Assembly (NCBI RefSeq): GCF_963921235.1
Contig: NC_086108.1
Location: 24,614,001-24,678,000 of the forward strand
Source: Mobula hypostoma
Taxonomy: Eukaryota
Reading direction: 5' to 3'
Length of the DNA: 64,000 nt
How positions within the stretch are numbered: the first letter of the stretch is position 1; every line of letters starts with the position of its first letter. The notes under the pieces are model-generated. The model ran no database searches. It had not been told where the DNA came from and saw only the letters and a list, made by a program, of their open reading frames with translations. Made by a program: the position numbers and the translations under genes. This document shows, piece after piece, positions 12,635-63,941 of the stretch.

Positions 12635-14115
12635 CTTACTTATATTTACTTATACTTTATTGTCGCCAAACAATTGATACTAGAATGTACAATCATCATA
12701 GCAATATTTGATTCTGCGCTTCCCACTCCCTGGAGTACAAATCAATAGTAAATATTAAAAATTTAACTTATAAATCATAAATAGAAAATGGAAAGTAAGG
12801 CAGTGCAAAAAAACCAAGAGCCAGGTCTGCAAATTTGGAGGGTACGGCCCAGATCCGGGTCAGGATCCATTCAGTCTTAATTCAATTTAAAGTGGTTCAT
12901 AGAGCACATATGTCCAAAGATAAGTTAGCGCGTTTTTACTCGCATATTAATCCTTTCTGTGATAGATGTTCGGGGCAGATAGCCTCTTTAACTCATATGT
13001 TTTGGTCTTGCCCTACTTTGGAAACTTTTTGGAGAGATATTTTCAATATTATTTCTAAGGTATTAAATATAGATATCTCTCCTCACCCTATTACTGCTAT
13101 CTTTGGACTACCTAAAATTTCTAGTAATCTTTCCCCTTCAGCCCGTAGAATGATTGCATTTCTTACTTTAATGGCGAAAAGATGTATTTTACAACATTGG
13201 AAAGAGCTTAATGCTCCAACTACCTTTTTTTGGTTTTCTCAGACGATTTTATGTTTGAATCTGGAGAAAATTAGAAGTAACCTTTATGATTCTTCATTTA
13301 AATTTGAACAGATTTGGGGACCTTTTATTCGATATTTTCATTTAATGTAATATTTACCCTTCTTGTTTTTTTTTCACTGTTTTAATGGAGGTCGGGATTG
13401 AGGACGTGATTTTAAGTTTAACTCTGTTTGGTTTCAAGTTAGCCCATTGCTTTGCTTTGCTTTTAGGTAGTTGCACGGTGGGTTTTTTTTTGGGGGTTTT
13501 TTTTTTCTTTTTTTTTTCCATTGATATATATAAAATCTAGTATACTATTATGTTATCTTGGTTTCTTATGCTTAAATTACATTGTTTGTAGTATTTTCTT
13601 TTTGGTATTGTTATCTTTTGGAATTTTATTGTACTTTAACATTGTATTAATGTTTATATGGCTTACCTTTTTTGTATACTTACTCAATAAAAAGATTTAA
13701 AAAGAAAGAAAGGATCCATTCAGTCTTATCACAGTTGGAAAGAAGCTGTTCCCAAATCTGGCTGTACGAGTCTTCAAGCCCCTGAACCTTCTCCTGGAGG
13801 GAAGAGGGACGAAAAGTGTGTTGGCTGGGTGCGTCGTGTCCTTGATTATCTTGGCAGCACTGCTCCGACAGCGTGCAGTGTAAAGTGAGTCCAAGGACAG
13901 AAGATTGGTTTGTGTGATGTGCTGCGCTGTGTTCATGATCTTCTGCAGCTTCTTCTGGTCTTGAACAGGACAACTTCCATACCAGGTTGTGATGCACCAT
14001 CAAAGAATGCTTTCTACGGTGCATCTATAAAAATTAATGAGGGTTTTAGGGGACAGGCCAAGTTTCTTTAGCTTTCTCAGGAAGTAAAGGCGCTGGTGGG
14101 CCTTCCTGGCAGTGT
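12635..14115 (-). mobile_element. Rex1-like LINE 3' part, interrupted by L1 12880-13710
   Basis: AQHITQTNLLSLDSLYTARC...THPANTLFVPLPSRRRFRGLKTRTARFGNSFFP. The 3' UTR continues left of the L1 to a TAAG-repeat tail. Confidence 0.75.
12880..13710 (+). mobile_element. 5'-truncated young L1 (ORF2 C-terminus + 3' UTR)
   Basis: CDRC...LTHMFWSC Cys-rich L1 domain, AATAAA then (AAAG)n tail. 18-bp TSD AGGATCCATTCAGTCTTA at 12862-12879 and 13711-13728. Confidence 0.9.
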
Positions 14116-20837: not shown

Positions 20838-22760
20838 CCTATATCAAATTTGTTGGTGGCACAACAGTGGTTGGCCTCATCAGCAATAATGCTGAGTTGG
20901 CATACAGACGTAGGGTAGAGAGGCTTGCCAAATGATGTGAGAACAACAGCCTAAGTCTCAACTTGGACACGGCAAAAGAGATGATTGTGGACTTCAGGAA
21001 GGCGCAGGTTGACCATGCTCCATTGTACATCAATAGCTCTGCCACGGGAAGTATGAAGAGCACCAAGTTCCGTGGTATGCACATAACAATTTACTCAATC
21101 TGGACCCGCAATACCTCTTAATTAGATAGAAAACAGAGCAGCATCTACACTTTTTGAGGAGATTGACGCATGCAAGGCTCCCCAATCCCATTCTATTAAC
21201 TTTCTACAGGAGCACCATCAAAAGTATCTTGCCTGGCAGCATCATTGTGTAGTACAGAAAATCAAAGGTATTGTACCGCAAGATCCTGCAGAGAATTGTT
21301 AAAAAACAGCTGAGAGGATCACGGCATCCCCTCCAACCTATTTGTGGCATTTACTGGGAGCATTGTTGAGGATCCCTATGTCATTGTCCAGTTCGTGAAG
21401 TCCGTATTCCGGTTCATGGTCCGGTCCATCGACCCTTGCTCCAGGTTTTCCTGTCTATCCTGTTTCTGTTCTTGTTGAGCTCTAATTGAGGCAGCTGATG
21501 CTCGTTGGGGCTGGCTGCATAAATACCTTCAGAGACCAGGGCGTGGCTGCTGGATTGTTCTTGTCCTACTCCTTGTATCCTTTCCTCTGCCTTCTGTTTC
21601 TTCGCCTGAAGCCTTGCCTTGTCTTTCTGGTAACTCTCGCCTCGCCTGAAGTTCTCGTCTTGCCTTGCATTGCCTGAAGCCTTGCCTTGTCTTGCTGGTA
21701 ACTCTCATCTCGTCTCGCCTGCAGTCTTGTCCTGGAGCCACCCTGTACCTAGCTCCCTTCCTGTCCCTTGCCTCCGCCCAGGTAAGCCAGGCCGTCTTAT
21801 CATTACCTGCGGTTGGTTCTGTCCCTTCCTGTCCGTTGCCTCCATTGAGTAAGCCAGGCCGTCTTGCCGTTACCTGCGATTGGCTCTATCCCTTCCTGTC
21901 CCTTGCCTCTGTCGGGTAAGCCAGGCCGTCTTGCCATTACCTGCGGTTGGTTCTGTCCCTTCCTGTCCCTTGCCTCTGTCGGGTGGTGATCCACGCCCTG
22001 CCCAGGAGTACCACGCCCTGCCCAGGAGGAGCCTGCCTAGCCTCAAGCCTGAAGACTCCAGCCTCCTGCCTCCTGCCAAGCCTCACCTCAATTCTCTAGC
22101 CTCTAGCCTCAAGCCTGAAGACTCCAGCCTCCTGCCTAGCCTCAAGCCTGAAGACTCCAGCCTCCTGCCTAGCCTCAAGCCTGAAGACTCCAGCCTCGTC
22201 CTTGCCTTGTTCTGGGATCCGAGCCAGAGGCAAGACCCAGGTAGTGGGTCCTTGTCCAGTCTCTGGCTCAGAGTCCAAGCCCGGGCTCCTAGCTCTTTTG
22301 TCCAGTCCTGTTCCAGGTTCTTGGTTTTCCTGTCCATGTCCTTGCCATCGCCCTGTATCCTAGTCCTGTCCCTAGTACCTCAGTGTCTGTGTTTGCACTT
22401 GGGTCCGTCCAAGCCACTGCCGTATGACACCCTACCATCCATCCCACTCTCTGACCCACTACCGTCAGGAAGTAGATACAGGAATATCAGGACTAGGACT
22501 GCTAGATTAAGTAACAGCTTCTTCCCATAGGCTGTGAGGCTAATGAATACACTGCCACAAGGACACTGTGCTATTTACTGTACTGCTTACCTGAACTGCA
22601 CACTTCATATGCATTTTGAATTTTATATTATTAACTTATTTGTGAACATTTTTCATTATTTGTGTATGATATATCTATGTGGGTGCACTGTGATTTGGAA
22701 AAATGTTGTTTTGTTTGCTTGTATACATGTACAGTCGGAATGCAATAAGCTTGAACTTGA
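20838..22760 (+). mobile_element. Rex1-like LINE 3' fragment, host of the solo LTR
   Basis: KFVGGTTVVGLIS, KEMIVDFRK, FYRSTIKSIL on the left; PLPSGSRYRNIRTRTARLSNSFFP on the right of the LTR. Confidence 0.7.
21379..22429 (+). mobile_element. Solo LTR (Gypsy-type) with internal tandem repeats
   Basis: TGTCAT...ATGACA termini, 5-bp TSD CCCTA (21374-21378 and 22430-22434), TATA-like CATAAATA near 21518, TGCACTTGGGTCC near the 3' end. Interrupts a Rex1-like LINE whose two halves rejoin. Confidence 0.8.
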
Positions 22761-23762
22761 TAAAGAGGTAAGCTCTTTGTTTGGGTGCCCTGGTCTGGAC
22801 ACTTTTAAAAAAAAAACATAGGTTATCAGAAATGCTGTTAAATAAGACATCTACATGTACTAGAGGAAAGAACTTTGTAAATCTATTTCACATGCAGTAA
22901 GATATATTGGTCCACTTGGTTAACTTTATTATGAGATTGGCAGAATCTTGTTAGCCATCAGGTATTAAGGAATATGGGTAAAAGGCAGGAGAAGCAGTTA
23001 GGCCACAGATCAGACACGTGAATAGCAAAACATGAAATGTGCTAAATAGTTTAAGTCAATTCTTACATTGGGGCTGATGGACATTCCGTTACTTAAAGAT
23101 GTCAGTAAATATTCATTCTTTTCAGCCTCAGACGATAATTTAGTGTTCTATCCACACTTTGAATCAATTAATAGAAAGTCGGAAGCAGGCCGCAGTTTGA
23201 AACCCATTGAAGATCTTTAACCCGCTATATGAGGGATAGTATGCACAAACTACAGGTTGGATTCTAATTGCGGTACTCAAGATTTCCAACCTAATTAGGA
23301 TATTCAGAAGATACAGAAGAGCTCTTGGGATGGAACCTTATGATAAACATTGCATGATAAGTAGAGCACTTTGTCGTGTACAGAATAATTGTGTAGCAAA
23401 ACATTTGGCAGAGTAATTTAATCTGACTGTTCTAGCATCTTTGCAAACAAGTGAAGCTGAAGTCTTCCAATTTAGTTACTCATCATAATCCATCAAGTAA
23501 ATGACTGCTTTATAATTCATTGTTGGCCAGTTGATAATCTTAATACAAAACAAAGAACAATAACTCAATAATCAAGAAATGAAATTTTATTTTTTGTTAG
23601 TTTTTTTTACAGCAGACCTTCAGAAATCGTATTTAAGTAGACTCAGGCAATTGAGGGGCTCTATTACTTTTGGTTCTCATTATCAATCATTGTATGTCTG
23701 ACTGAGAAAATGAATGCAGATACATTCGTTTAGCAATATTACATCCACAAATCTCAAGGAAC

Positions 23763-24540
23763 CGTTGGCCAGTAGAAACAACAGTATGCAAGTAGTGGAT
23801 TTGATGAATCAAGGACAGGGGAAGCAGACAAACCAGTTGTCTTTGTTTCCCCCCATTTTGTGGATTCTGAACTGATTCTTCCTCTGGGACAATCCAATCA
23901 GAGCATTTGAATGTGGACATAAGGAGCTTTAGGTAACAACCTGCTGAATCTGAGGCCTCACTTGGAGGAATAGCTGTTTATTACGTAAAGTTCTGGACCT
24001 ACCAAAGAAGCCATCTGTAATCTCATTAGACTCGGTCTGGTTGCCTCATTGAACTGGTTTGGACCAGTCAGAGTTTAAAGACACAAATACACAAGACTGG
24101 GATGGGCAGAGCACAAAACAATGTTGGTTGTAGCCCTGTACAATGACCAGTAAGAAGGTGACCCAGGTAGATCAGGTGACCTTGAATCAACAGGATAGAG
24201 ATCCAACAATTCAATTGATGCGAAATAGCAGGGGTGATAACTCTCCAGTAACCAGAGACCAACCATTGCAGATAAAGTTGACACAGATATGGTTAACTCC
24301 ACGGACATGTAGAGATTGGGACCACAAGGAACACCTGGCCAGCACAGACTCCTTTTCTGGGTAATATGTTTTCTCTTCGTTGACTGCTCATGGAAGGTAA
24401 GGGATTCTAGTAGGGTGCACACAGGTAGTTAGTTTGTGAACCCACCTGTTTTTTAGTTGAAACAATAAAAGTTACTTGTTGGTAAATACAGATTCTCTGT
24501 GCCTCACTGATCATTATTACAAGGGGTGATTCTTTTAACA
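23763..24540 (+). repeat. 5' LTR of provirus
   Basis: Starts CGTTGGCC (TG decayed) and ends TAACA. Homologous to 30449-31212. Contains AATAAA near 24464 and is followed by the PBS. Confidence 0.9.
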
Positions 24541-24544
24541 GAAT

Positions 24545-24562
24545 TGGCGTCCCTGGGTGGGC
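24545..24562 (+). promoter_or_regulatory. Primer binding site complementary to the tRNA-Asn(GUU) 3' end
   Basis: TGGCGTCCCTGGGTGGGC(T), 4 nt after the LTR end, is the reverse complement of the vertebrate tRNA-Asn 3' end ...AGCCCACCCAGGGACGCCA. Confidence 0.88.
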
Positions 24563-24660
24563 TGGAGGATAAATCTCCTTCAGCGGGATATTTGAGTTGG
24601 ATCACGTAGATGAGGTACAGAGAGAGCTGGGGCTGGGTAGTTAACGGTAAATAATCCAGA

Positions 24661-26466
24661 ATGAATAATTCAGGAAATTCAAAGGACTTGGGATTGGTTT
24701 GATTGGAGGGGTACCTCCAGAAATACGTGTTGGGGAAGTGACCGCAATATAGGGAGTTTGTCGGTCACCCTGGCTGTGAAGGGAAAACTGCTGGGGATGC
24801 CCTGTGGAAAAGGGTCCAAAGGAAGCTGTTGAGCAGGAAGTTTAAGTAATTACAAAAAACAGTAGCAGTTGGCTGTTTAATTGAGTATTTGATAGAATTA
24901 CCACAAAGTTCTAAGACAAGACGCCACAGATTAGAATCAGAAGTGTCGACATAAAACAGAAGCCGAGCGAGATAGGTTACAGCAGGAAATCCTAGAATAT
25001 CAACAAAAAGCTGAAGCCAAGCGAGATAGGCTACAATAGGAAAATCTAGAATACCAACATAAAGCAGAAGCAGACTGAGAACACAAAAGGCTCCAAAAGA
25101 AGGTAGAAATCTTTAGAGAGAGGGTTACTGATTTACAGGATCAGAGAGATATGGCCTCGATCCATGTGAAACTGTTTCAGCTGAAGTGTGAGCAGCTGAA
25201 CTAGCGAAGGATCAAGTGGAAAGATTAAGAAAACAGTGCAGTGATTTAAAGACGGCTATAAATGTGATTCAGAAATCAGCACAGGAAAGGAGTAGTAACA
25301 CTGGTGATCATGTAAAGTGTTTAAAGCATAATCAAAACAGACTGGACCAACATGCTGCACAGCAAGGCATAATATGTGCTTTTGGATCTGAAAAAGGGGA
25401 GGAAGGTGAATACGGAGACATTGATTGGCATGATTTAGCAGATGAAGCTACTAGATACGGTTACAATAATTATGGAGCACGGTTTCCTGAGGAACTCCCA
25501 CCGATACCCAACCAACTGCAGCCGGTGCTACCATCTGCACGATTGGCACCGCTAGTTACTATCAGAGAGGAGGGAGCGGGGGAGCAAATCAAAATCTGAA
25601 TATAGCATACAGCACTTCGTTCGGGATACAGCAGCCTAGAGATATTACTTAGGATATCGGAACACGTTTGCTTGGAGATGATCCTTGAGAGCTTTTCCAA
25701 GCAACTAGTCATCAGAGACTAATACATGGCCTAGATGACTTGAGGATTATAATGTATTTACATCCAAATATACACTCAGCTTTGCCAGATGTACAATGAC
25801 ATGGTGGGGGAACAAGTGAGGAACTGAAGAATGCAATAATGACTGTTACGGGTGTTAACAGAGGGAGACTGGTAGACGTGCTAGCCAGAAGTTACCAGAG
25901 GAGAGGTGAACGTCCCACTGCATTCACATCCTGTTTATGGACTGTGTTCCAAGGGGTGTATGGAATAGCATTAGAGCAGGACCATTTTGAACCAGAGGTC
26001 TCAAATAGATGGTTGAGGACCCTGGTGTCTCACTGTACTGATGAATCTAAAAAGGCATTGGAAATGTCTGATCCTTCTGAACCCACACATACTGAGGCAT
26101 GGGTACTGAAGAAAATGAGTAGAGCATGGGAAAAGGAGATACAAAAGGGCAACTAAACTCTCTAATGGGAAGGTGATTCCTATTAAAAGTCAAGCACATG
26201 CCTGGAGAAATAAGGGTAGGGGACCCACGCCAAGAACCTCCATGCCATGCTATCAAAGGATAAGGAAGGGCAGAGGAAATGGAACAGGTGGAGTAATTAA
26301 ATGCTACAACTGTGGTCAGGAGGGACACATTAAGAGAGAATGTCCAAACCTGAGATGAGAAAGAGCAGAGCAATGTGGTTTGCCCTTGGAGGGGCCAGAA
26401 AGACTGAGCCAACAAAATAACATGGTGGACACCACCATCCAAGGAATTGTACCTGAGCCTCAGTGA
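24661..26466 (+). pseudogene. gag: gag-like pseudogene (coiled-coil N-half, capsid-like middle, one CCHC knuckle)
   Basis: ORF fragments 25216-25599, 25839-26156 and 26173-26358. Zinc knuckle CYNCGQEGHIKREC at 26302-26343. Many stops and frameshifts. Start codon is tentative. Confidence 0.75.
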
Positions 26467-29415
26467 TGGGGTCAGGCCTCATCAACATGGATGTGTAACA
26501 TAAGGTGGGATGAAACTGGAAGTCCTCTAGTGAGTGGTAGGGTCCGCAGCCATCCTGTTATGGGACACTGGGGGATCTCGAACCACAGTCAACACTACTA
26601 ATGTAAATAACACAAATTGGGAAATACAAGGTAAAATTATTCTAAGTGTATTCACAGGACCTTCATGAGTGGGACATGTGAGTGTACCATTGGAAGTAAG
26701 GACAGGAGACATAGCATTGGATCATTCAACAGTGTTTAATTACCCAGGGACCAGGAACATACACTGGGGAGTGATTATATGGCCAAACTGGGGCTTTGTT
26801 TTGACCCAGTCAATTGTATAACTTGGCAGATGCCAATGATATGAATAACATGCATCACATACAGATCCCAGCAGGAGAATATCAGGATAGAATATGCACA
26901 GTGGGTGAAATGTGGATAAAACTGTAGCTGAGCAACGATCAGAAGGTGCAGCAAATTATTTCACAGAACACAGGGACATTTGCAAGGCACAGGCATGACT
27001 GTGGAAAGATGGCTGGCAGTGTGAGCATAGAAAATCCAGACCCCAAACCACAGAAGCAATATGGGTTTCCTCAAAAAAGTAGAAGATGTAGGTAAGGTAA
27101 TACAGAGTTTGGTACAACAAGGGATACTGTGGCCAGTAGCCTCCACTAATAATTCACCCATATGGCCAGTGAGGAAACCAGAGGGTAGTTAGAGGTTGAC
27201 AATAGACTATCGACAGCTGAATAAAGTAACTCCATTAACAGCCCCAACTGTAGCAACTAACCTGGAGACAGTGGTCAAACAGAATGAAAGAGCTCAATGG
27301 TTCACAGTTTTAGATATAAATAATGGCTTTTGGTCTATCCCACTAGATCAAGAGTGTCAATACAAGTTTGCATTTACGTTTCAGGGACAGCAGTATACAT
27401 GGTCTTCCCAACCCCAGGGGTTCCATAATTCCCATCTTTATTTCACCAGTGCTAGGAGAAGGGTTAAAACAGTTTTCAAAACCCAAGTGCTTGGTACATT
27501 ACATAGATGATCTACTCCTGCAGACTGAAACCAAGCAGGAACATTATCAGCTATCGACAGAACTGCTGCAATTATTACATGCATTGGGACTGAAGGTAAA
27601 CCCTAAAAAAGCACAGGTAATGAAACAATAAGTTAGTTATTTGTGAATGATCTTGACACTGGGAAAAAGAGAAATTGATAAGCAAAGTGTAGAATCTGTT
27701 ATGAAACTCCCTATTTCCTGAGACCTGAAAGGGCTGTGGTCCTTTCTGGGGCTGGTAGGCTACTGTAGGGATCACATTGATGGGTTTTTCACTCAGGCAG
27801 CTCCTTTAATGGAGTTACTGAAAAAGAATGTGACATGGGAATGGAAATCAGAACATATTCAGCCCATCACAGCTCTGAAGCAAGTGTAGGCCACTGCACC
27901 TCTTTAAAAACACCAAATCCAAATGAGCCATTCTCATTGAATTCTCATTGGACGTGGCTACAACTGATACCACCCTCTCAGCAATGCTGTTACAGGAGGT
28001 GCACGGGAAGTTAAGACCAGTAGCGTATGCTCTCATCAGCAGAACAGGGGTATACTGTATGTGAAAAACACTTGCTAGTGGTTTTCTGGGCAGTACAACA
28101 TTTTGCCTACATAGTGGGACTTAATCCACTTAAGATACTGACAGAACACACCCCCATACAATTACTGTTAGATGGAAGAATTAAAGATGGTGCAGTAAGC
28201 CAAAACAGAATTGCTCGAATATCATTGCTGTTGCAAGGGAGAAATATGAGTGTAAAGCGAGTAAACACTATGTCAATGGCAGTCGATATCCTGGTGTACC
28301 AAGGAGGTGAACATCAGTGGCGTTATGATAGCAAATGATTCCAGGGTCCATTTGTATCAAAACAAAAAGAAAGGGGCGGAAGCAGATCAGGTAAAGTAAT
28401 GACTGAGAACAAAGACACAAAGAAAAGAGGAAAAAAAACATTTTACAAAAAATATAAAATTTTTGTAGATGTCTCCTCATCAGTACAGGATGGTGAGAGG
28501 AAAACTGGCTGTGGCATATATGTAGAGGATGAACATGGCCAGGAAAGGTATAGTATAGCTTTAAAGTGACCCAAAACCTTGAGTGCAAAGGCAGTAGAAT
28601 TGGCAGCTGTAGCATATGTGGTTAGCCACCCAGAACGTTTTCTGCCAGGTTCAGTCATACACTCTGATAATATGTACGTTTGTAACAGCCTTACAGAACA
28701 TTTGCCTCTGTGGGAAGCCGGAGGGCTTGGTTCAGCTGATGGGAAGCCCCTCCCATCTGCTGCTTTATTACAATATATATTTGAGGAGGCAAAGGGAAAA
28801 GAACATGTAGTCATAAAGGTGAAAGGCCACTCTAAGTTTTCTCCTGACAGAAATAGAAAGGTTGGCGAATTGGCACAGCAAGGTGCCTTGGGCATATGGG
28901 CATGAATGGCAGTCACCGATTGGGAAGATTGGAAGGCAGAAGGAACAACAGATTAAGGTTATGGATTCAACAGAGGAGCAGAAGATAAAGAATTTAAAAA
29001 AAAACTGACAGAAGGTACAGGGTCTGAAGTATACAAAGAGCACAAGGGAGTGTTTGTCAAAGATGGAGCTGTCCTTCATGAAGGAAAGCTTGTGGTTCCA
29101 GAGGCAGGAAGAAACCAGATGATCCATTGATACCATTATCTATGGGGATACCAGGGGTGCAAAAGTACCCTGGAAAAGATCAAGGAAGTGGGCTGGTGGC
29201 CTAACATAAAGGATGATGTGGAGCATTATGTCAAAAAGTTGCTTGAGTTGTACACAATATAATCCTGACAGAAATGTAAAGAAAGGATCCCTTCAACACA
29301 GCAGACCAGTGGAAGGGCCTTGGACTAATTTGCAGATATATTATGTTGGTCCCTTACTGCCCACCCCAGGAAAGTTCAAGTATATCCTGGTAGTAGTATG
29401 AAGTGGGTGGATTTT
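26467..29415 (+). pseudogene. pol: pol pseudogene: protease, RT, tether RNase H, second RNase H, N-terminal part of integrase
   Basis: PR LWDTGG...LGSD. RT PKPQKQY, TIDYRQLNK, LDINNGFW, FAFTFQGQQYTW, PQGFHNS, YIDDLLL. Tether RPVAYA/CEKHLL/TEHTP. RNase H IFVD.SS/ELAAV/IHSD/KVKGHS. IN WWPNIKDDVEHYV, CLSC, GPWTNLQIYYVGPL, KYILVVV, KWVD, after which homology ends. Confidence 0.88.
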
Positions 29416-29664
29416 CAGTTCCCTCATCCTGAGAACCAGGGGAGTTTTGTCAAAAAATCAAAGGAAAAGGAAAATATGCCAGTGCTTATCCCTCTTGTCC
29501 CAAAACAAAATTGGGTGAGGAAAAATGGACGACTTGAGTCCAAGAGCAAAGGGAAGTCTGGATTGGATGGTCTAGATAAACAAAATATGGACTTAAAATA
29601 ATTTAAGATTCAAACTAGAAATAAGAGTAGATATTACCCTCGCGTGTTACAGGTTCAACTCAAC

Positions 29665-30272
29665 ATGGAGAGAATAATGTATTTTGTTGCGGTGGCACTA
29701 ACCATGACTGGGGCCATGATCTGTCTTGTTCCAGAGCGAGGACAGCAGACTAACATTTCAATTGTTTGGAAAACACTCAGTGAACAAAATAAAACATATC
29801 TTCTTAACGACACAGGTATTACAGTCTAACAAAGGTGAAATGGAGGACTCAGATTTGTATTATACACAATAATGAAGGAGATCTTCAAGATTCAACGCAC
29901 TGATACAGATGAATATCTGCTGACTATGTTGTTACTGAGTGGCTACCAATTCGTCACTTGACTGCAGACTGGGCACGTGCTGTGGGATGGCGAGGGAGAT
30001 CATCCATCAATGGACTAAACACACTAAAGTAATTAAAACATGCTGGTAAGGCAAATGAAATATTGAGTGACCCAGGCTTTTGGAGTAAGTTTTGGAATTG
30101 GGGGATAAATGTACAAATACATCCGTGGGTAAGAATAGTATCACATGCTGTAGTAATACTAATTTTATGCGCCCTGATAATTATATAGCTCGATGTATAT
30201 CAACTAAGAAGATAGAAGGCTGAAATATTGGAAAAAGTTGAGGATAATTCTTTCATTAAAAGGCAGGTATGA
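29665..30272 (+). pseudogene. env-like membrane glycoprotein remnant (probably internally deleted)
   Basis: Strong-context ATG (caacATGg) just after a ttacAG acceptor-like site. Signal-like MERIMYFVAVALTMTGAMIC, sequons NIS, NKT and NDT. In another frame, Trp-rich PGFWSKFWNWG followed by hydrophobic IVSHAVVILILCALIII and a short charged tail. Confidence 0.6.
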
Positions 30273-30435
30273 TTGTCAGTTTCAAGTGGGTGAATTTAGT
30301 TATTTATATTTAGTTAAATGTTAATATTATTTACAGAAAGTAAGTGTTGAACACCTACTGGGGTTCCATGACAGTTCATGGGCTGTCAATTAAATGAGAG
30401 GAGGATAATGATCCTAAGATAAATATCTTTGGATC

Positions 30436-30448
30436 AAGAGGAGGGAGA
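30436..30448 (+). promoter_or_regulatory. Polypurine tract
   Basis: AAGAGGAGGGAGA immediately before the TG start of the 3' LTR. Confidence 0.85.
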
Positions 30449-31212
30449 TGTTGGCCAGAAGAAGCTACAGTATGCAAGTAGTGGATTTGATGAATCAATG
30501 ACGGAAAAGCAGAAAAAACAGTTGTCTTTGTTTCCCCCCATTTTGTGGATTCTGAACTGACTCTTGCTCTGGGACAATCCAATCAGAGCAATTGAATGTG
30601 GACACAAGGAACTTCAAGTAATGACCTGCTAAATCTGAGACCATTCTCTGAGGAGTAGCTACTTGTTATGTAAAATGCCAGAACTACCAAAGAAGCAATC
30701 AGCAATCTCATTAGACTCTGTCTGGGTTGCCTCATTTAACTGGTTTGGACCAGTCAGAGTTGAAAGAACAAATACACAATACTGGGGTGGGCAGAGTCAT
30801 GAAACAATGTTGGTGGTAGCCCTGAACAATGACCAGTAAGAAGGTGACCTCGAGCCAATGTGATGGAGATCCAAGAGTTCAATTGACGAAAAACAGTATA
30901 AGAGTCAGGAACTCCAAATATGCAGGGGAAATAACTCTCAAACAGAGAGCAAACAGAGACCAACCATCGCGGATAAGGATGACCCCACCGTCAGGTGGAG
31001 ATCGGGACGACGAGGACTGCCCAACCAGCATAGGCTCCTCTTCCGGTTAATATCTTTTCTCTTCATTGACTGTTCATGGAGGATAAGGGATGCACACAGG
31101 TAGCTTTTTTTGTGAATCCACATACTTCTTAGTTGAAACAATAAGTTACTCGTCAGGAAATACAGACTCTGTGCCTCACTGATCATTATTACAAAGGGAG
31201 ATTCTTGTAGCA
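30449..31212 (+). repeat. 3' LTR of provirus
   Basis: TGTTGGCC...TAGCA, homologous to the 5' LTR with substitutions and indels, followed by the GAAC TSD. Confidence 0.9.
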
Positions 31213-31529
31213 GAACCAAAAGGGAAATTGTATTGTGTTTTTAAGGCATCTTGCTCAGAAGCATCATAGAAACTAGAAGGTTGCCTCACTTCAATCTTCC
31301 TCCAATTCATTGTGGAATGCGATATATTTCTCCCTAAAATGGGTTAGAAACCAAGATAGAAAAAATTCTATGGGCTGGGAACAATTATTAACAATGTAAA
31401 TAAATAAAAGCATGCATTTACCATCAAGCATGAATATATTTTTGGGAATTATTCCAAGTTCTAATTACTTATTTGGAAATCTACTAACGTTTTTGTAGGC
31501 AGTTTGCATTCATCAGTTACACACAACTG

Positions 31530-45970: not shown

Positions 45971-47150
45971 AAATAATGAAGTATTAAAAGCAGTTGACTT
46001 TATGTTTTATATGTTTCTGGTTACTCCTTTCATTATTGTTGCTATCTTATGTTATTTTGATCAGGGCGGACTGGATCTGTGGCTTACAGTCAATGAATGA
46101 CAGAGCACTAAATTGAACTGACATTCCTGGACTGTTTCAAGGACTCTGTAGTTTGATGTTTTATATTCTGCGAGTTCTCCATTCGTTCTTTTCTGTTTGC
46201 GCGATTTGTTCTTCTTTTGTGCATTGGGTGTTGATGTTTTCTTTGAACGAGGTACATGGTGTTTCTTGTTTCGTGGCTGTCTGTGGGAAGGAGAGTGTCA
46301 GGGTTGTATACTGCATACATACATTGATAATAAGTGTGCTTTGAATCTTTGAATATTTGTTTGGTTTAAATGTGTGGTTCACAGTCGATGCAGACACAGT
46401 GAACCAAAGGGCCTAATTCATGTGCAACTAACAAACTATTTCTATATACTAGTGTGGCAAGAATCCATTCCGAGTAATTGTGCTTAGTACTGAGCACGGT
46501 ATAGCGACACTGCCATCTCCAAAGTGAGCAGCTTTCTCAGCTTTAATAATGCAAAAGCTACCTGCTGATCTAGTAACATGCTTGATGCAGTGGCGGGGGG
46601 TGGTTTTAGTTGATGAATTCTACCAATGCCACAAAAAACTGCTTCCCTTCCAATTAATTTGCAGGTAAAGTCAACTATTTTTAAAATTTGTGAGTCCTAC
46701 ATAGCTGTGCTACAATGATTAGATCCAAGCACAAGGGACCTGAAAGTTAGTCATTGAGAAATTAAGCACAGAAACAGCTCATTTGGCTAATGGAGTCAAC
46801 ACCAATCATCAACCTCCTGTTTACATTAATCCTTCCTACATTAATCCCATTACTTATTCACCCACCATTCCCATCAACTCCCCTGAGATTCTACCACTCA
46901 ATTACACCAGGGTCAGTTTACCATGGCCAATTAATTTACTATTCTGCACATTTGATTGTGAAAGCAAATCAGAGCACCTGGAGGAAATGCACACAAAAAT
47001 GTACAAATGTGCAATCTCCAAACAGATAGCACCAGTCGATGCGGTTTGGGCTGTTGGGCCTTGATGCATGAATGTGGTTTGGAAGTTGTTGAGGGAAAGA
47101 GAGTGGGGAAGGAATGGGATTTGCTGGGAGGGGGTTGTGTGGGTCCGGAA

Positions 47151-48382
47151 ATGGCGGACAAGATGGGGGGGGGCGTTGAGGAAAAGAAAGTGGAGAAGGA
47201 GCGGGATAGGGATTTGGGATCAGAGGTAGGCAGCTGGGGAGAGATGGATTATTGTGAAGGGAGAAATAAAGGGAATGAGGAGGTAGTGAGGGGATGGATG
47301 AATGAAAGCCAAGACAAAGGGAATAAAAGAATAAGAAATGATGGTGGAGAAAGCTCTGAAAGTGAGGAAGATGAACAAGCTCAGAGAGGAGGTGTTGTCA
47401 TAATTAGGTTTAATGAGAAGGCTCAGGGACATATGAAGAAAATTAACCCATCTGTGCTAACAACAACTCTGGCAAATAAGGTAGTGGAAATAGTATTTGC
47501 AAAAGTCCTTAATGATGGCAACTTATTGGTAAGATATGCGAATAAGGAACAACTTGAGAGAGCACTCAAGCTAAAAAAGATAGGAAAATGCAAGGTGGAA
47601 TACACAGGGAGGGTGGGAGTACAAAATAGTGGTTGTAAAGGAGTGATCATGGGGGTACGAATGAGTATAAATATGGAGGCGTTAAAGAGGAATATCAAAG
47701 GAGGGAAAGTAATGAATGTTCAAAGACTGAAAACAACAAAGGAGGTAATGAAAAAGGAAAGTGAATCAGTATTGATTGAATTTGAAGAAGCAAGAGTGCC
47801 AAGGAAGGTGTTCCTGGGTTTCATGAGTACCCAGTAAGGGTGTATGTTCCAAAGCCACTGAGGTGCTATAATTGTCAAAGGTTTGGACACATAGCTAAAA
47901 ACTGTAAAAGGCAGAGAAGATGTGCTAGCTACGGGGGTGATCATGAATATGGAAAGTGCGGAACAGGAGTGCAACCAAAATGCTGCAATTGTGGAGGATC
48001 TCATAATGTGGCATATAGTGGGTGTGAGGTTATGAGACGGGAGAATAAAATTCAAGAAATAAGAGTGAAAAGAAAGGTCACTTATGCAGAAGCTGTAAGA
48101 ATGTCAAGAGAACAGAACAATGCTCCTAATGAACAGGGAGCAATAGGGATACGAGAGATGCAACAAAGAACAAATGACAGGATTTATGTAGACAAAAAGG
48201 CTCTAGTAACATTTATTGCAGGAGTGATTAATAGTACAGCTGAGGTAAAGTCAAAAAGTGACAAAATTCAGCTGGTGTTAAAAGCAGTGGTAAACCATTT
48301 GGAGTTAGTAGGACTGACATGGGAGGAAGTGAGGGAGAACCTCACTAATCAGTCAAGCCAGGAAGTGTCATGTGTTGGTTAA
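47151..48382 (+). pseudogene. LINE ORF1 (gag-like, three CCHC knuckles), one frameshift near 47828
   Basis: PKPLRCYNCQRFGHIAKNC, CASYGGDHEYGKC, CCNCGGSHNVAYSGC. A one-base loss breaks FMSYPVRVY. Confidence 0.85.
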
Positions 48383-48390
48383 TACTAATT

Positions 48391-51300
48391 ATGGTGATTC
48401 TTTTACAATGGAATGCAAGGAGCTTACTGGCCAATAGCCAGGAATTCAAGCACTTTATTAAAGAAATGGTTGTAAAACCGGATGTAGTGTGTATTCAGGA
48501 AACTTGGTTGAAACCAACTTTAGACTTTGTGGTATATGGGTATACAATGATAAGGAAAGATAGAAATCTAGGGGGAGGAGGGGGTTGTGCTATGTTAATC
48601 AAGCAAGGTATACCATATAGGGTACTGGAAAAAGGAGATGATCAGGAATACATAGTGGTGGAAGTGTGGGGGGAGAGGGGAGGGAGTGGTTATAATTAAC
48701 TACTACAATCCATGTAAAAGGTTGGATTTGGACAGCCTATTAAGGGTATAAGGACAAAACAGACAGAAAGTAGTGTGGTGTTGATTTCAGTGCTCATAGC
48801 ACAATGTGGGGGGATCAGATTACAGATCCAAATGGAAAGGTAATTGAAGATTTGATGGAAGAAAGGGATTTGGTGTGTATGAATGATGGTAGAGGCAGAA
48901 GGATAGACATAACAACAGGAACTGAGTTAGTGTTAGATATTACGTTAGTGTCTAATACCTTGGCTGGTGTAAGTAACTGGGGTGTTTGGACTGCTTCAAC
49001 AGTAGGCAGTGATTACTACCCAGTTTTATGTTCAGTGGGCGAAAGAGTTGAAGTAAGACCAGGTGGTGGAATCCCAAAGTGGGTGTTTGGAAAAGCAGAT
49101 TGGGGGAAGTTCCAGAAGTTGAGTGAAGAAGTATTGACAAAGATTGACATTTCTGGAAATATAGATGAATTAAAGTCAGGTGACTTCAGCAATTATTATG
49201 GCAGCAGAAGGATCTATACCCAGGAGTAAAAATAGGATGAATAGGAAACTGGTACCATGGTGGACAGAGGAATGTTGTCAGGCTGTAAAAAACAGAAATA
49301 GAGCATTCAGGCTAGTTAGAAGAACCCATAATATGCAGCATTTGGTTCAATATAAGAAAGCACAGGCAGTGGTGAGAAGAACTATACATCAAGCTGAAAG
49401 GGCAAGTTGGAGGGGTTTTTGCAACAAAATAGGAAGAACAACACCTGTGGGAGAGATATGGGGAATGATTAAGAGGATGGGAGGAGATAGAAGGAAATGG
49501 GAATATCCAGTAATGATATCTGAGGAGGAAACAGCAGTCTCCAGTAGGGATAAGGCTGAGATCATGGCCAAGTCATTTGTACAGATACACAGTTCAGAAA
49601 ATTTGTCTGAAGGAGGGAGAAGGAGAAGGGAAAGAACAATGAGTCAACACCCAGGTGTGTTAAACAGGAGGGAAGGAACAGATGATATAATTGATGATCC
49701 ATTTACGTTAGCAGAAATGGTGAGAGCAATAAAGAGATCGAGACCAACCTCCCCAGGGAAAGATCTGATATGCTCTGTGATGCTAAAAAATTTAGGAGAA
49801 GGAGCGCTCTTGAAGTTGCTGCATTTTTGTAACAGAGTGTGGGAGGAGGGAAGATTACCAAGTGCATGGAAAGAAGCAGTAGTAATTCCAATAAGGAAAC
49901 CTGGCAAGGATCCGTCAAAACCCACTAGCTACAGACCAATAGCATTAACATCAAATATATGTAAGATAATGGAAAGGATGATAACAGAAAGGTTGTCGTA
50001 TGAGCTTGAGAAGAGGGGGATGCTGGCAAGTTATCAGAGTGGTTTTAGAAAGGGAAGGAATTTCATGGACTCAGTGATAAGGTTAGAGACTGAAATAAGG
50101 AAGGCCCAGACAAATAAAAAATCGGTAGTTGCAGTGTTCTTTGACATTGAAAAAGCCTATGATATGATGTGGAAGGAAGGATTATTAATTAAACTGCAAA
50201 AGATGGGTGTTGGTGGGAGAGTTTTTAATTGGATTAAAGATTTTTTGTTTGGTAGAAAAATTCAAGTTCGGATTGGATCAGAATTATCAAAACAGTACAT
50301 AGTGGAAAATGGCACACCTCAAGGTAGTGTGATTAGCCCGTTACTTTTCATCATTATGATAAATGATGTCTTCACAAAGGTACCAGTGGATGTAGATAGG
50401 TCACTGTTTGCGGATGATAGGGCCTTGTGGAAAAGAGGCAGGAACATAGAGCATATAATCGGGAAACTACAAGAAGCAATTGACGAAGTGGTGGAGTGGG
50501 GTTATGATTGGGGATGTAGATTTTCAGTAGAAAAAACTCAAACTATGTTTTTTACCAGGGAAAGAATTGAGGTAGGGAAAAAGTTAAGGATGTATGGGAT
50601 TGAATTAGAAAGGGTTGGATCATTTAAATTTCTGGGAGTTATATTTGATTCACGATTAACATGGGCGGACCATACCAGGAAAGTTGAGGAGAAATGTAAA
50701 AAAGTAATAAATGTGATGAGATGTTTGACTGGTAGGTAGGGAATGGGGAGCAAGTTGTTCAGCGTTGAAGAGAATGTATGTGGCTTTAGTAAGATCTGTA
50801 TTGGATTATGGAAATATAGCATATTGATCAGCAGCTAGGTCTCTTATAAGGAAATTGGATGTGATTCAGGCTCAGGCTTTGAGAGTGTGCAGTGGGGCTT
50901 TTAAAACGTCACCGGTGTCAGCCCTACAGGTAGAAATGGGAGTAATGCCTTTGGAACTAAGAAGGGTGCAATTGATGGCAAACCACTGGGCTAACTTCCA
51001 GGGGCACAATGATTCTCACCCTACTAAAGGAGTGTTGCAGGAGTGCTGGGAAAATGGGAGGTTTCAGAGGGATACCTTTAGTCAGGTAGGGAATGATATT
51101 GCTAAAGAATGTGGAGTGTTTGATCTAAGGATAAGTCCTTCAGTAGTTTATCTGGTTGGAGCTCCATGGAAGCTTGTATGGCCTGACATAGACTGGCATT
51201 TGTTAGAGGTAAAAAGGAAAGGAAGATATGAAACTGATTTGGTAAATGCATTTAGCTGTCATGTGATTATACTCACATTTATACGGATGGTGCGAAGGAA

Positions 51301-52131
51301 CCTGAAACAGGAGTGACAGTGTTTGGGGTGGTTATACCAGCAAAAGAAATTGGAATCAGCAGAAGAACATCTAATAAGTTAGGGGTGTTTACAGTGGAGA
51401 TGCTGGCAGTGTTGGTTGTGTTGCAATGGGTGTAGAAAGCCAGACAAGTCAAAGCATTGATATGCTCAGATTCATCCTCAGTTCAAGCAAGTTTAAGGTC
51501 TTTTCACACAAACAGTTGGCAAGATGTACTTTATGAAGCCCTTCAGTCAGTCACAAGAATTGCAAATCAGGAAGGTCAGGTAAAATTTCTATGGGTTCCA
51601 GCACATGTAGGTGTGAAGGGGAATGAGAGGGTGGATGAGTTGGCAAAGAGGACATTAAAGAAAGAAAACATAGAAATGCACATTAGTATCAGCAAAGCAG
51701 AGGTTAAGTGTGTAATCTGGGAAAAAATCAACCAAATGTGGCAAGAAAGATGGGACAGGGAGGGGAAAGGGAGGCATTTATATCAAATACAAAGAAGTGT
51801 TGCAGGTACTAGGGTAGGTAATGGATACAAAAGAGAGGAAACTGTGCAGACTAGGTTAACGCTGGGGCACTGTGCATTAAACAAAACGTTAAAAATGATA
51901 GGGAAACACCAGACAGGATTGTGTGAGGAATGTCAGGAAGAGGAGTCAGTAGAACATGTAGTTCTGAGTTGCAGCAAGTATGGGGTACGGAAAGAGATGA
52001 TGAGAATTAAACTAAGGGAATTGGGGGTGCAGGAATTGACATTAAAAGGGTTGCTGGGCATGGGTGAGAGAGCACAGGTTAGGGTATTTTTAGCTTTTTT
52101 AAGGGGTACAGGGGTTTTTTATAGGATATGA
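48391..52131 (+). pseudogene. LINE ORF2 (APE endonuclease, RT, RNase H, C-terminal Zn finger), disrupted
   Basis: LQWNARSL, CIQETWL, GSDYYP; YRPIALTS, FDIEKAYD, GTPQGSVISP, FADD; IYTDG, ICSDS, WVPAHVGVKGNERVD; CEEC..ESVEHVVLSC. Several stops and frameshifts. Confidence 0.88.
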
Positions 52132-54746: not shown

Positions 54747-56440
54747 TAACTTTTTTTGCACAGTACTATATAGACAGTCCTCCAAGGAACAAATAACAAA
54801 ATCTTCATATTTCACATCATACCCAATAATAATCTAGCAATTTGGCCAGTATGAATCACTGAAAGAAGTAAGTCAAGTCCTGCAGAATTATATCGAAGAA
54901 TATTCAGTATTCTGTATAGAAAGGCAAAATTATTACAGCAAGATTAAGAGGATATCTATCCCTCCAAAGACTGAATTTGACTGTGTAGGAAGATGAGCAA
55001 ATGTGTTTTCTAATTTCTTTGGTTGTGTTGATTCAGTGATGTGTATAATTATGGATGAAATCACATCCCTGTTATTTAATACAAAGATAATGGCATAGAA
55101 TTTTGAATCAATAGGGTGGGGGATTAGATTATTGCATGTTACCTTGCATTTCTGAAAGTGAATTGTAAATAAAGTCTGTCTTACAATTCACAGAAGAGTG
55201 CAGTTGCTGAATTTTCATGACATCACTTCGAAAGATCCAGGTGTATGTGCAAACAGTAACATATGGGGAATGCCCTTTTTCCAAGCCCACTTTACAAAGA
55301 AATATCAATTACACATCTGGATTCTATATTCAAAATGGTGTCACCTAGTTTTACAAGGCTATCCAAGAATCTTTAGGTATGTGGTCTTACAACAGATGCA
55401 AAAAGAATCCGAGAAAATGTCAGCAATTTTAACAAAAACGTCTCTGTTTTCAATTTTGGATATAAACAAAATATTCCAGATAGGATTATTACAAATTTCC
55501 AATTCAACATTCCCAACATTTTTCTAATCTTCAAATTCTGGCAACTCAGTGCACAAAAATTGAGAGGAATTAATGAAGTTTGAGCTGTGATCAGATATAA
55601 ATGAATATTATGCACCAGGAAACAGAAAAATTTCCAATTAACATATATAGTTTACTTTTTATAAAATGCCCTGGACCAAGATACCGCAACACGCTGTTGC
55701 TTTCCACCACTAACTGTAAAAAGTTTATGTGTGTATCTGTGATTGTGTGGGTTTCCTCTGAGTGCTCTGGTTTCCTCCCACAGTCCAAAGGCCTACTGGG
55801 TGATAAGTTAATTTGTCATTGTAAATTGTCCTGTTTTTAGACTAAGGTTATATCCATAAGAGCATAACACAAAGGAGTAGAATTAGGCCATTAGTCCTGT
55901 CATGTTTCTCCACTATTTCATCATGGAAGATCCAAATTTCCTCTCAGCCCCAATCTCCTGCCTTCTCCCCGTATTCCTTCTTTGCTGACCAATCAAGAAT
56001 CTTTCAACTTCTGCCTAGTATACATAAAGACTTGCTCTTCACTGCTACCTGTGGCAAAGAGTTCCACAGATTCACCTGGCTAAAGAAATTCCTCCACATC
56101 TCTGTTCTAAAAGGATGCCCCGCTATTACAAGGCTGTGTCCTCTGGTCTTAGCCTCCCCGACCGTAGGAAATATCCTCTCCACATCCACTCTATCAAGAC
56201 CTTTCAATATTCGATAGGTTTCAAATAGGTCACCCTTATTCTAGTGAATACAGGCCCAGAGCCATCAAATGCTCTTCATAGGACATGCATTCAATACTGG
56301 AATCACTTTAGTGAACCTCCTTTGAACACTCTCCAGTTTCACCACATCCTTTCGAATATAAGGGGCTCAAAATTGTTCCCGGTACTCAAAGAGAGGCCTT
56401 ACCAGTGCTTTGTAAAATCTATTTATTACTCAACCTGCAA

Positions 56441-58232
56441 ACTAGCAACAGAGGAGCTGATGGCAGTGTGGACAGGGCCAACGAACTTAGCCTATTCTTT
56501 AACAGATTTGACATTGTGACCCCTGCCCACCCCCCACATGAGCCATCTGTTGTCTGCCCCCAACCAACACATATTCCATTCTCCCCTCCTCACGGTCCCC
56601 CACCCTGCTCTGATGACTATACCCCTTCCCCACACAAAACCACCACGGTGGGCTTCACGGCTGAACAGGTGAGAAGACAGCTGAAACGTCTCAACCCAAG
56701 TAAGGCTGCAGGACCGGATGGTGTCAGTACCAGGGTGCTGAAAGCCTGTGTCCCTCAGCTATGTGGAGTACTTCGCCATGTATTCAACCTGAGCCTGAGG
56801 CTCCGGAGAGTTCCTGTACTATGGAAGATGTCCTGCCTCGTCCCTGTGCCGAAGACGCCGCGCCCCAGCGACCTCAATGACTACAGACCAGTGGCATTGA
56901 CCTCCCACATCATGAAGACCCTGGAGAGGCTTGTTCTGGAGCTGCTCCGGCCTATGGTCAGGCCACACTTAGATCCCCTCCACTTCACCTACCTGCCCTG
57001 ACTAGGAGTTGAGGATACCATCATCTACCTACTAAACCGTGTCTACGCCCACTTGGACAAGCCAGCGAGCACTATGAGAGTCATGTTTTTTGACTTCTCC
57101 AGTGCGTTCAACACCATCCGCCCTGCTCTGCTGGGGGAGAAGCTGACAGCGATGCAGGTGGATGCCTCCCTGGTATCATGGATTCTTGATTACCTGACTG
57201 GTAGACCACAGTACGTGTGCTTGCAACACTGTGTGTCCAACAGAGTGATCAGCAGCACTGGGGCTCCACAGGGGACTGTCTTGTCTCCCTTTCTCTTCAC
57301 CATTTACACCTCGGACTTCAACTACTGCACAGAGTCTTGTCATCTTCAGAAGTTTTCGGATGACTCTGCCATAGTTGGATGCATCAGTAAGGGAGATGAG
57401 TTTGAGTACAGGGCTACGGTAAGAAACTTTGTCATATGGTGTGAGCAGAATTATCTGCAGCTTAATGTGAAAAAGACCAAGGAGCTGCTGGTAGACCTGA
57501 GGAGAGCTAAGGTACCGGTGACCACTGTTTCCATCCAGGGGGTCAGTGTGGACATGGTGGAGGATTACAAATACCTGGGGATACGAATTGACAATAAACT
57601 GGACTGGTCAAAGAACACTGAGGCTGTCTACAAGAAGGGTCAGAGCCGTCTCTATTTCCTGAGGAGACTGAGGTCCTTTAACATCTACCGGAAGATGCTG
57701 AGGATATTCTACGAGTCTGTGGTAGCCAGTGCTATCACGTTTGCTGTTGTGTGCTGGGGCAGCAGGCTGAGGGTAGCAGACACCAACAGAATCAACAAAC
57801 TCATTCGTAAGGCCAGTGATGTTGTGGGGATGGAACTGGACTCTCTCACGGTGGTGTCTGAAAAGAGGATGCTGTCTAAGTTGCATGCCATCTTGGTCAA
57901 TGTCTCCCATCCACTACATAGTGTACTGGGTGGGCACAGGAGTACATTCAGCCAGAGACTCAATCCTCCGAAATGCAGCACAGAGCGTCACAGGAAGTCA
58001 TTCCTGCCTGTGGCCATCAAACTTCACAACTCCTCCCTTGGAAGGTCAGACACCCTGAGTCGATAGGCTGGTCCTGGACTTATTTCATAATTTACTGGCA
58101 TAATTTATGTATTACTATTTAACTATTTATGGTTCTATTACTATTTATTATTTATGGTGCAACTGTAACGAAAACCAATTTCCCCCAGGATCAATAAAGT
58201 ATGACTATGACTATGACTATGACTATGACTAT
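56441..58232 (+). mobile_element. Rex1/Babar-like LINE, 5'-truncated, near-intact RT
   Basis: KAAGPDGV, NDYRPVALTS, FFDFSSAFNTI, GAPQGTVLSP, KFSDDSAIVG, KYLG. One in-frame stop near 57000. AATAAA then (GACTAT)n tail. Nested in a minus-strand CR1. Confidence 0.88.
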
Positions 58233-63707: not shown

Positions 63708-63941
63708 CAGCAACTTTGATGTGCGTTGCTTGAATTTCCAGCATCTGCAGAATTCCTCGTGTTTGCACTTGCAAAATCTGGCATTTGGACTTCATGCTGA
63801 ATTGCAGTCATTGGAAATGATGCTCAAGAATTTCAGCATAAACATTTAATATTTCTCACATTTCAATGTGATATAAGGAGGAGGTAGCCATTTGGCCCAT
63901 CGAATTTACACTAACTTTTAGTACAATCCCTTAAAACGCAT

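Follow-up and report, generated by a model that had tools for sequence, protein, structure and literature searches.

A dead provirus in the genome of the ray Mobula hypostoma, its likely kinship with SnRV-related retroviruses and its predicted F-type envelope protein

A 64,000-nucleotide stretch of Mobula hypostoma DNA (contig NC_086108.1, positions 24,614,001 to 24,678,000; hereafter the window, whose own numbering is used) contains a very old, dead provirus at positions 23763–31212. The explanation that we prefer, and hold with fairly high confidence, is that it descends from a simple retrovirus likely to belong to the relatives of snakehead retrovirus (SnRV; this group is clade Huo and shares its Pol clade with CmiERV lineage I of the elephant shark), with an envelope protein (Env) that is predicted to be of the paramyxovirus F type. 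It is likewise quite probable that the provirus and its copies elsewhere in the genome form a family of basal, SnRV-related retroviruses that is new and found in rays, its Env being F-type by prediction.

The provirus and its copies in the host genome

The long terminal repeat (LTR) at the 5′ end (778 bp, 23763–24540) begins with CG rather than TG and ends with CA, the 3′ LTR (764 bp, 30449–31212) has TG and CA ends, and the tetranucleotide GAAC to the left of the element (23759–23762) is repeated identically on its right (31213–31216). A primer-binding site at 24545–24562 exactly complements the 3′-terminal 15 nucleotides of the host tRNA-Asn(GTT) genes plus CCA; ARAGORN called tRNA-Asn in three of the four host loci examined, and an Rfam scan of the 64-kb window gave no matches. 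The polypurine tract is a 13-nucleotide purine run at 30436–30448. All oriented features of the element lie on the + strand, in the order LTR, primer-binding site, gag, pro, reverse transcriptase (RT), tether, RNase H, integrase, env, polypurine tract, and LTR; the LTR alignment, the flanks, and the order of Pfam domains bore out the bounded LTR-to-LTR provirus with a 4-bp target-site duplication that had been proposed in a first-pass annotation. The two LTRs are identical at 622 of 728 aligned bases (85.4%; Kimura two-parameter distance 0.164), which across published rates of 2.2e-9 to 2.2e-10 corresponds to 37–373 million years and provides no usable single date. The window copy plus its two deleted stretches measures about 9.7–9.8 kb.

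Pfam was run on 14 single-frame pieces of the element, with X placed at stops. The broken gag gene (24751–26466, its start not located) terminates at a TGA stop; its N-terminal part is coiled-coil-like, as judged from sequence and weak Pfam matches only, and holds a 54-bp tandem repeat (24949–25071), and a single CCHC knuckle lies at 26302–26343 (zf-CCHC, E 4e-9). The protease region (26467–26812) has a DTG motif near 26564. The RT (26944–27904, with YIDD at 27500–27511) is frameshifted and matched RVT_1 in two frames (E 8e-14 and 2e-10); it is followed by the tether, a degenerate first RNase H (27933–28240; RT_RNaseH, E 7e-9), by RNase H itself (28450–28890; PF00075, E 4e-12), and by the integrase zinc finger with the first residues of the core (29095–29410; Integrase_H2C2, E 2e-9). 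No significant Pfam family was obtained for the protease piece, four gag pieces, and both env pieces. The Pol motifs quoted in the first-pass annotation are all present in the sequence, and 20 internal stops are spread across 12 gag-pol frame segments. The integrase catalytic core was deleted at 29398/29410, a position at which six copies from elsewhere in the genome have 0.8–1.1 kb.

These copies, or siblings, are a set of 20 loci fetched from the same 3.48-Gb genome, all 20 of which are broken or interrupted. A search with an 80-residue RT piece gave 150 scored matches among 4517 first-look candidates, the 19 best other RT copies being 74–90% identical to the window piece, and an LTR search gave 40 scored matches of 2427 first-look candidates, with near-full-length copies 77–81% identical. 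The family is old and spread to many loci. Less-deleted copies, which the first-pass annotation had advised seeking in the source genome, do exist: siblings L023, L028, and L040 preserve more of env than the window copy, and the rve domain was detected in L023 and L028. Siblings also carry a GPY motif, and a CCHC knuckle was found in the Gag of six of them. In L027 and L028 gag and the protease region behind its stop share one frame, a layout that suggests stop-codon readthrough as the source of Pro-Pol; the frame of the window copy is shifted here.

Two further observations concern copies of the family. Four RT matches of equal score lie at G000:C9:199417871, 200385432, 200409233, and 200433034 (G000 being the host genome), three of them spaced by 23.8 kb, and we read this cluster as a tandem segmental duplication or an assembly repeat holding a family copy. 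An 880-residue protein model, P0075, joins a family env fragment to what is, by eye, an ankyrin-repeat channel-like protein and is probably a gene-prediction chimera.

Placement among retroviruses

RT trees of 43 rows were built under two models (LG+G4 and a site-mixture model), 75 rows having been reduced to 37 and six of 12 foamy RTs then added. References were labelled by motif against Dataset S2 of Wang and Han plus Pfam: P0114 is SnRV, as confirmed by a 10,688-base viral contig; P0146, P0111, and P0112 are lokiretroviruses (the three loki rows); and 12 viral contigs are foamy viruses. The family RT fell within the canonical retroviruses (support 100/95 and 98/98), outside both the loki clade (100/100 and 100/99) and the gamma/epsilon-like clade (99/97 and 99/92), and the six foamy rows formed their own 100/100 clade without it. 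It grouped with elements from frogs and coelacanth and with unnamed ones in a clade of 12 rows that had moderate support (84/93 and 82/92). The Gypsy rows were split from it at 100/99, in keeping with the earlier description of a deep-branching retrovirus outside Ty3/Gypsy. An env-carrying Ty3/Gypsy retrotransposon has in its favor that errantiviruses can combine a CCHC Gag with an F-type env; given that split, and the tether plus second RNase H of the element, we regard it as the least credible of the alternatives.

The nearest database proteins to sibling RT (50–56% identity) are unnamed elements and frog and coelacanth proteins named "NYNRIN-like". Those names first suggested a lokiretrovirus, a candidate that was ruled out by motifs and by the RT tree. 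A "NYNRIN-like" protein, P0006 from Pyxicephalus, passes in its last 140 residues from integrase through a signal-peptide-like stretch to immunoglobulin-like sequence, as judged by eye, and this tail may be a host domain that was captured where env would lie.

The first-pass annotation had offered the lokiretrovirus lineage as one home for the element, and this placement failed. Lokiretroviruses do resemble the family in their dual RNase H, Mononegavirales-F-like Env, and relatively similar integrase (PMC7947760; this and the other PMC and bioRxiv papers are cited from excerpts), and the coiled-coil Gag region would also fit; a true lokiretrovirus would be the first from a cartilaginous fish, as the excerpt of PMC7947760 reports none in six chondrichthyan genomes. 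However, none of the four trees placed the family RT inside the loki clade, its motifs are unlike those of all loki rows viewed in Dataset S2, and the approximately unbiased (AU) test rejected family plus loki (p 4e-10 in an earlier tree set and 3e-6 with 43 rows) as well as the 12-row clade plus loki (p 0.006). The family also has a stop between gag and pol and an extra N-terminal Env domain of ~200 amino acids. We consider this alternative very improbable, and the window element leaves the count of zero in six chondrichthyan genomes unchanged.

Among named references the N-terminal half of the RT scored best with SnRV, at 127 bits versus 80–95 bits to the 12 foamy viruses. Joining to SnRV was compatible with the data in AU tests (p 0.31 in the earlier tree set and, for the 12-row clade with 43 rows, 0.18). 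SnRV Gag contains a single zinc finger besides a coiled coil (PMC2717909), zf-CCHC was matched once in it by Pfam, and SnRV pol is in frame behind the gag stop, as in siblings L027 and L028. The first-pass annotation had called the element a mosaic; the Gag pattern of a coiled coil plus one CCHC is SnRV-like. Membership in ERV3/ERV4 was also considered and is excluded by the 4-bp duplication, the CCHC knuckle, and GPY: those groups have a 5-bp duplication, no zinc finger, and no GPY/F motif, whereas endogenous retroviruses (ERVs) of the Ovex1- and SnRV-related kind have a zinc finger and/or GPY (Chong 2014).

Several results weigh against an SnRV-related placement. The family did not join SnRV in the RT trees, in which the canonical retroviruses branch from an open fork at their base, and kinship with SnRV is therefore allowed rather than shown. 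The trees were built without CmiFLERV, XtrFLERV, ZFERV-2, AciFLERV, ERV-L/S, ERV4, and class II viruses. Outside the RT, SnRV is distant from the family: its tether scored 16 bits versus 32–45 for loki, its integrase core 84 versus 157–164 for loki, and its RNase H 20 versus 21–28. The integrase tree gave no resolution and had SnRV on a long branch, and the match to CmiERV-I described below was made by eye. SnRV is a complex virus with accessory open reading frames (ORFs) and a 1134-codon env frame with a long tail, whereas the ray family looks simple (PMC12193657, PMC6001957).

The tether and integrase-core scores, higher to loki than to SnRV or foamy viruses, could mean that the element is a recombinant, with an SnRV-group RT and a loki-derived tether, integrase, and Env; a comparison by eye only also shows its Env core to be collinear with Loki-Xtr Env from the Wang and Han supplement. 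Yet in every domain the scores to frog and coelacanth elements from that RT clade are higher again, so any swap would have been ancient and clade-wide. Family and loki were not joined in the integrase tree, and the long SnRV branch depresses SnRV scores. An F-type Env, being common to foamy viruses, lokiretroviruses, and likely SnRV, can be ancestral. On balance, we think such a recombinant unlikely.

The remaining alternative is a ray member of the basal foamy-like group (CmiFLERV/XtrFLERV), i.e., a spuma-related lineage that retained a CCHC Gag, and this accords with the foamy-like Pol of the first-pass annotation. The best PDB matches were indeed foamy RTs (96.7 bits versus 60 for Ty3 and 54 for MLV), Xenopus tropicalis proteins lie in or near the 12-row RT clade, and foamy viruses and foamy-like ERVs share with the element a 4-bp duplication, in some cases a tRNA-Asn primer site, and, if the prediction for the ray Env is right, an F-like Env fold (PMC5512871, PMC5210030, PMC11468914). 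However, PDB holds no SnRV-group RT, and once SnRV was included it outscored all 12 foamy RTs. The AU test rejected family plus foamy (p=0.0015) and, weakly, the 12-row clade plus foamy (p 0.024). In fish foamy-like ERVs, Gag has no Cys-His box and the polypurine tract meets the LTR in the sequence GGGTG, neither of which is true of the window element, and there are no bel-type ORFs in the approximately 180 bp between env and the 3′ LTR. The foamy character assigned to Pol was thus not upheld, although the earlier statement that Gag and Env are not foamy-like was: the CCHC match is significant, and env opens with a short hydrophobic peptide instead of a long leader. There were no matches to the foamy protease PF03539 in the host genome, a search in which the positive control was silent too, and viral-contig scans with alignment A1 and with the loki protein P0112 found nothing. 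We give a foamy-like origin a small chance, and an SnRV-related retrovirus remains the preferred placement.

The closest published relative is from the elephant shark. Han 2015 (PMC4422223) described an SnRV-related ERV lineage I there and placed it with SnRV. CmiERV-I resembles the window family in having a cartilaginous-fish host and a length of ~9.6 kb; by eye, its scaffold 2 copy matches the family in RT motifs, CCHC box, gag-stop context, and integrase start, and both Gags have a repeat-bearing coiled coil and one CCHC. On these comparisons, a cartilaginous-fish member of the window element's Pol clade is already in print (Han 2015). The Env of CmiERV-I is, again by eye, of the gamma type, with an LQNRMALD-type immunosuppressive motif and CX6CC, and the window family has neither, so it is not CmiERV-I itself. 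LTR pairs diverge by 3.3% in CmiERV-I and by 16% in the window element. The primer site of CmiERV-I is presumably for tRNA-Ser, whereas the window family uses tRNA-Asn. The possibility raised at the outset that the element would match a family already described therefore holds for the Pol clade but not for the family or the Env class.

The envelope protein and an open env gene at a second locus

The env remnant of the window copy (29665–30266) consists of a hydrophobic, signal-peptide-like start and a C-terminal transmembrane part, ~1.45 kb between them having been deleted at 29864 as judged by comparison with siblings; a pyrimidine tract and CAG at 29631–29652 form the likely env splice acceptor. 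Over 78 amino acids the remnant is 51% identical to P0068, a 745-residue protein of the stingray Hypanus sabinus, which was also the sole long database match to sibling Env (48% identical, E 1e-81); a representative protein library gave 13 further Env matches, mostly partial. Sibling Env comprises, in order, a signal peptide, a basic furin site, a glycine-rich hydrophobic peptide, a heptad region, a cysteine-rich core, and a transmembrane anchor. In the N-terminal ~200 residues the window family is unlike the sub-family typified by P0068, which suggests a swappable receptor-binding domain. Neither an immunosuppressive domain (ISD)-like motif nor CX6CC was found in three intact Env relatives.

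The family Env is predicted to be an F-type fusion protein (class Ib in the terms of PMC11468914). With residues 215–700 of P0068 as query, Atlas ranked Fusion_gly clusters first at 0.91, from a low-confidence model, and structural comparison gave TM scores of 0.45–0.53 to models of baculovirus F, F0, and foamy Env; the full-length query scored below 0.9. An env profile aligned with SnRV Env collinearly over 200 columns, furin site to furin site (P 2.5e-4), and weakly with foamy Env (P 0.007), whereas the controls SnRV Pol and SnRV Gag gave P 0.79 and 0.31. Other results count against the prediction. Pfam and PDB sequence searches of the env pieces, P0068, and the env alignment gave no significant family, PF00523 included; hmmsearch with the env profile put SnRV Env at 1.3 bits when 300 shuffles reach 1.7; and the hhalign probability for the env comparison was only 43%. 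In that hmmsearch, Env proteins took all of the top nine places among 59 real ORFs, though with only 1–8 bits.

The SnRV env (L066:6131-9535) matched no Pfam family yet aligns with the family env from the furin site onward. From that site on, the two are likely homologous, and SnRV Env is likely of the F type as well; no paper stating this was found in the literature searched.

A search of the host genome with P0068 gave 77 matches (60 scored of 1147 candidates), and among those scored only C2:126459298-126461511 spans nearly the whole protein without a stop, at 92% identity. It corresponds to an open env of 733 codons (G000:C2:126459313-126461511) within a sister provirus at G000:C2:126449848-126462600 (L054, L055, and L041). 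The rest of this provirus has decayed: its pol lies in six pieces in three frames with five stops in 324 residues, and its LTRs are 76–81% identical. At that divergence 11–14 stops are expected under neutrality in a 733-codon frame, and none is observed, whereas all 11 of the other env loci fetched with P0068 carry 4–35 stops in their aligned parts. L042 (G000:C5:147373031-147375181) is a full-length env of the C2 sub-family that has no frameshift but 35 stops; it abounds in TAA and TAG, possibly as a result of hypermutation.

The C2 env differs from the Hypanus (XP_059838750, P0068) and Hemitrygon (XP_072911529) proteins at 54 and 51 of 733 residues, respectively (~93% identical); both stingray gene models are database predictions. 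This orthologous-looking gene in common with two dasyatid stingrays fits a ray as host. The P0068 cluster comprises, besides the full-length Hemitrygon akajei protein, a 319-residue near-duplicate from Hypanus sabinus (P0083, XP_059837273) whose contig equals that of P0068 in length; we take it either for a duplicate that was truncated or for an artefact of assembly or annotation. The first nine residues of both full-length stingray proteins are encoded 9.4 kb upstream of the C2 env, outside the 5′ LTR, in an exon with a GT donor in phase with the AG acceptor before env. This exon sits in an old repeat, other copies of which are 67–83% identical, and its nine codons are missing from both of the other copies checked. 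The shared upstream exon and env therefore indicate one insertion common to three ray genomes. The furin site and 15 cysteines are retained in all three ray Envs, and residue changes are fewer in the fusion core (22/472) than in the N-domain (18/150; p 0.003). A search of sequencing runs for the C2 env listed no RNA run that contains it, and the small share of its words in nine of 13 listed runs counts as no evidence. The C2 env is likely a co-opted ray gene.

There is precedent in Ovex1 of birds, a basal element outside classes I and II whose env-like ORF is intact between species and lacks ISD and CX6CC (PMC2717909); in Ovex1 gag-pol is still open and a zinc finger is absent, whereas the ray C2 provirus keeps only env. 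Chordate clusters of 874 amino acids were structural neighbors of P0068 in Atlas, and from this length we infer that they are Ovex1 ORF3. The syncytin-like Env candidates of chondrichthyans share with C2 an open env beside a decayed pol (bioRxiv 10.64898/2026.05.06.723177); that screen, however, required ISD and CX6-7CC, the gamma type, and the C2 env, lacking ISD and CX6CC, would therefore fail it.

A broader reading, which we favor by a modest degree of belief, is that rays domesticated an F-type (class Ib) env from a sister lineage, conserved in at least three ray genomes and spliced from an exon outside the provirus, and that the F-type Env shared by lokiretroviruses, foamy viruses, and the SnRV group would likely be ancestral, a gamma-type Env having replaced it by recombination.

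In outline, the ancestral virus would have primed reverse transcription with tRNA-Asn, packaged its RNA with a Gag of coiled coil and one zinc knuckle, and made Pro-Pol by readthrough of the gag stop. Its Env, with a variable N-terminal domain, would have been translated from a spliced mRNA, cut once by furin before the fusion peptide, and used in membrane fusion as F proteins are. The family spread to many loci long ago and decayed by stops, frameshifts, and, in the window copy, two deletions. A sister lineage left the C2 provirus, in which env remained open and likely turned into a gene of rays.

Other elements of the window and implications

No host gene was found in the 64-kb window. A fairly intact non-LTR retrotransposon on the + strand (46962–52131), with a CCHC ORF1, endonuclease, RT, and RNase H, is presumably I/Nimb-like; relatives of it lie inside L033, one of the loci examined. 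Two more elements with a non-LTR RT are present, one at 56315–58066 (+ strand; RVT_1) and one at 61892–63823 (− strand; RVT_1, zf-RVT, and a 643-codon open frame), the 3′ part of the latter recurring at 12799–13350. Tandem repeats of 67, 33, and 7 bp are clustered at 21754–22197, 1.6 kb upstream of the provirus, within a 225-codon open frame without a Pfam match.

No description of the window family or of the ray env was found in the literature searched, which also covered excerpts of PMC9040795, PMC13524379, bioRxiv 2024.03.17.585361, and PMC10699275; the 2020 co-option survey of Wang and Han and a 2023 J Virol paper on a foamy virus of cartilaginous fish were outside that search and may bear on both. 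A term search of a 2026 paper on teleost env found cartilaginous fish unmentioned.

By itself, the window copy is one dead member of a known, poorly classified basal retrovirus group. In the excerpt of PMC7947760, Wang and Han did not decide if lokiretroviruses have their F-like Env from an ancestor or gained it separately, and an F-like nature has since been demonstrated for foamy Env (PMC11468914). The ray family would be a third such lineage, a canonical one whose Env is F-type by prediction, and it bears directly on the ancestry of retroviral F-like Env. If the prediction is true, the F-type Env is a trait shared by lokiretroviruses, foamy viruses, and viruses of the SnRV group. Env class is predicted to differ within one Pol clade, being F-type in the ray family and gamma-type in CmiERV-I, which would be a case of Env class switching inside that clade. 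The C2 env, intact, conserved in live-bearing rays, and invisible to ISD-based screens, is a concrete candidate for a gene that acts in the fusion of cells, in reproduction, or in defence against viruses and, if our reading is true, would differ, as a gene of the fusogen class, from the gamma-type syncytins that searches in sharks and rays have targeted to date.

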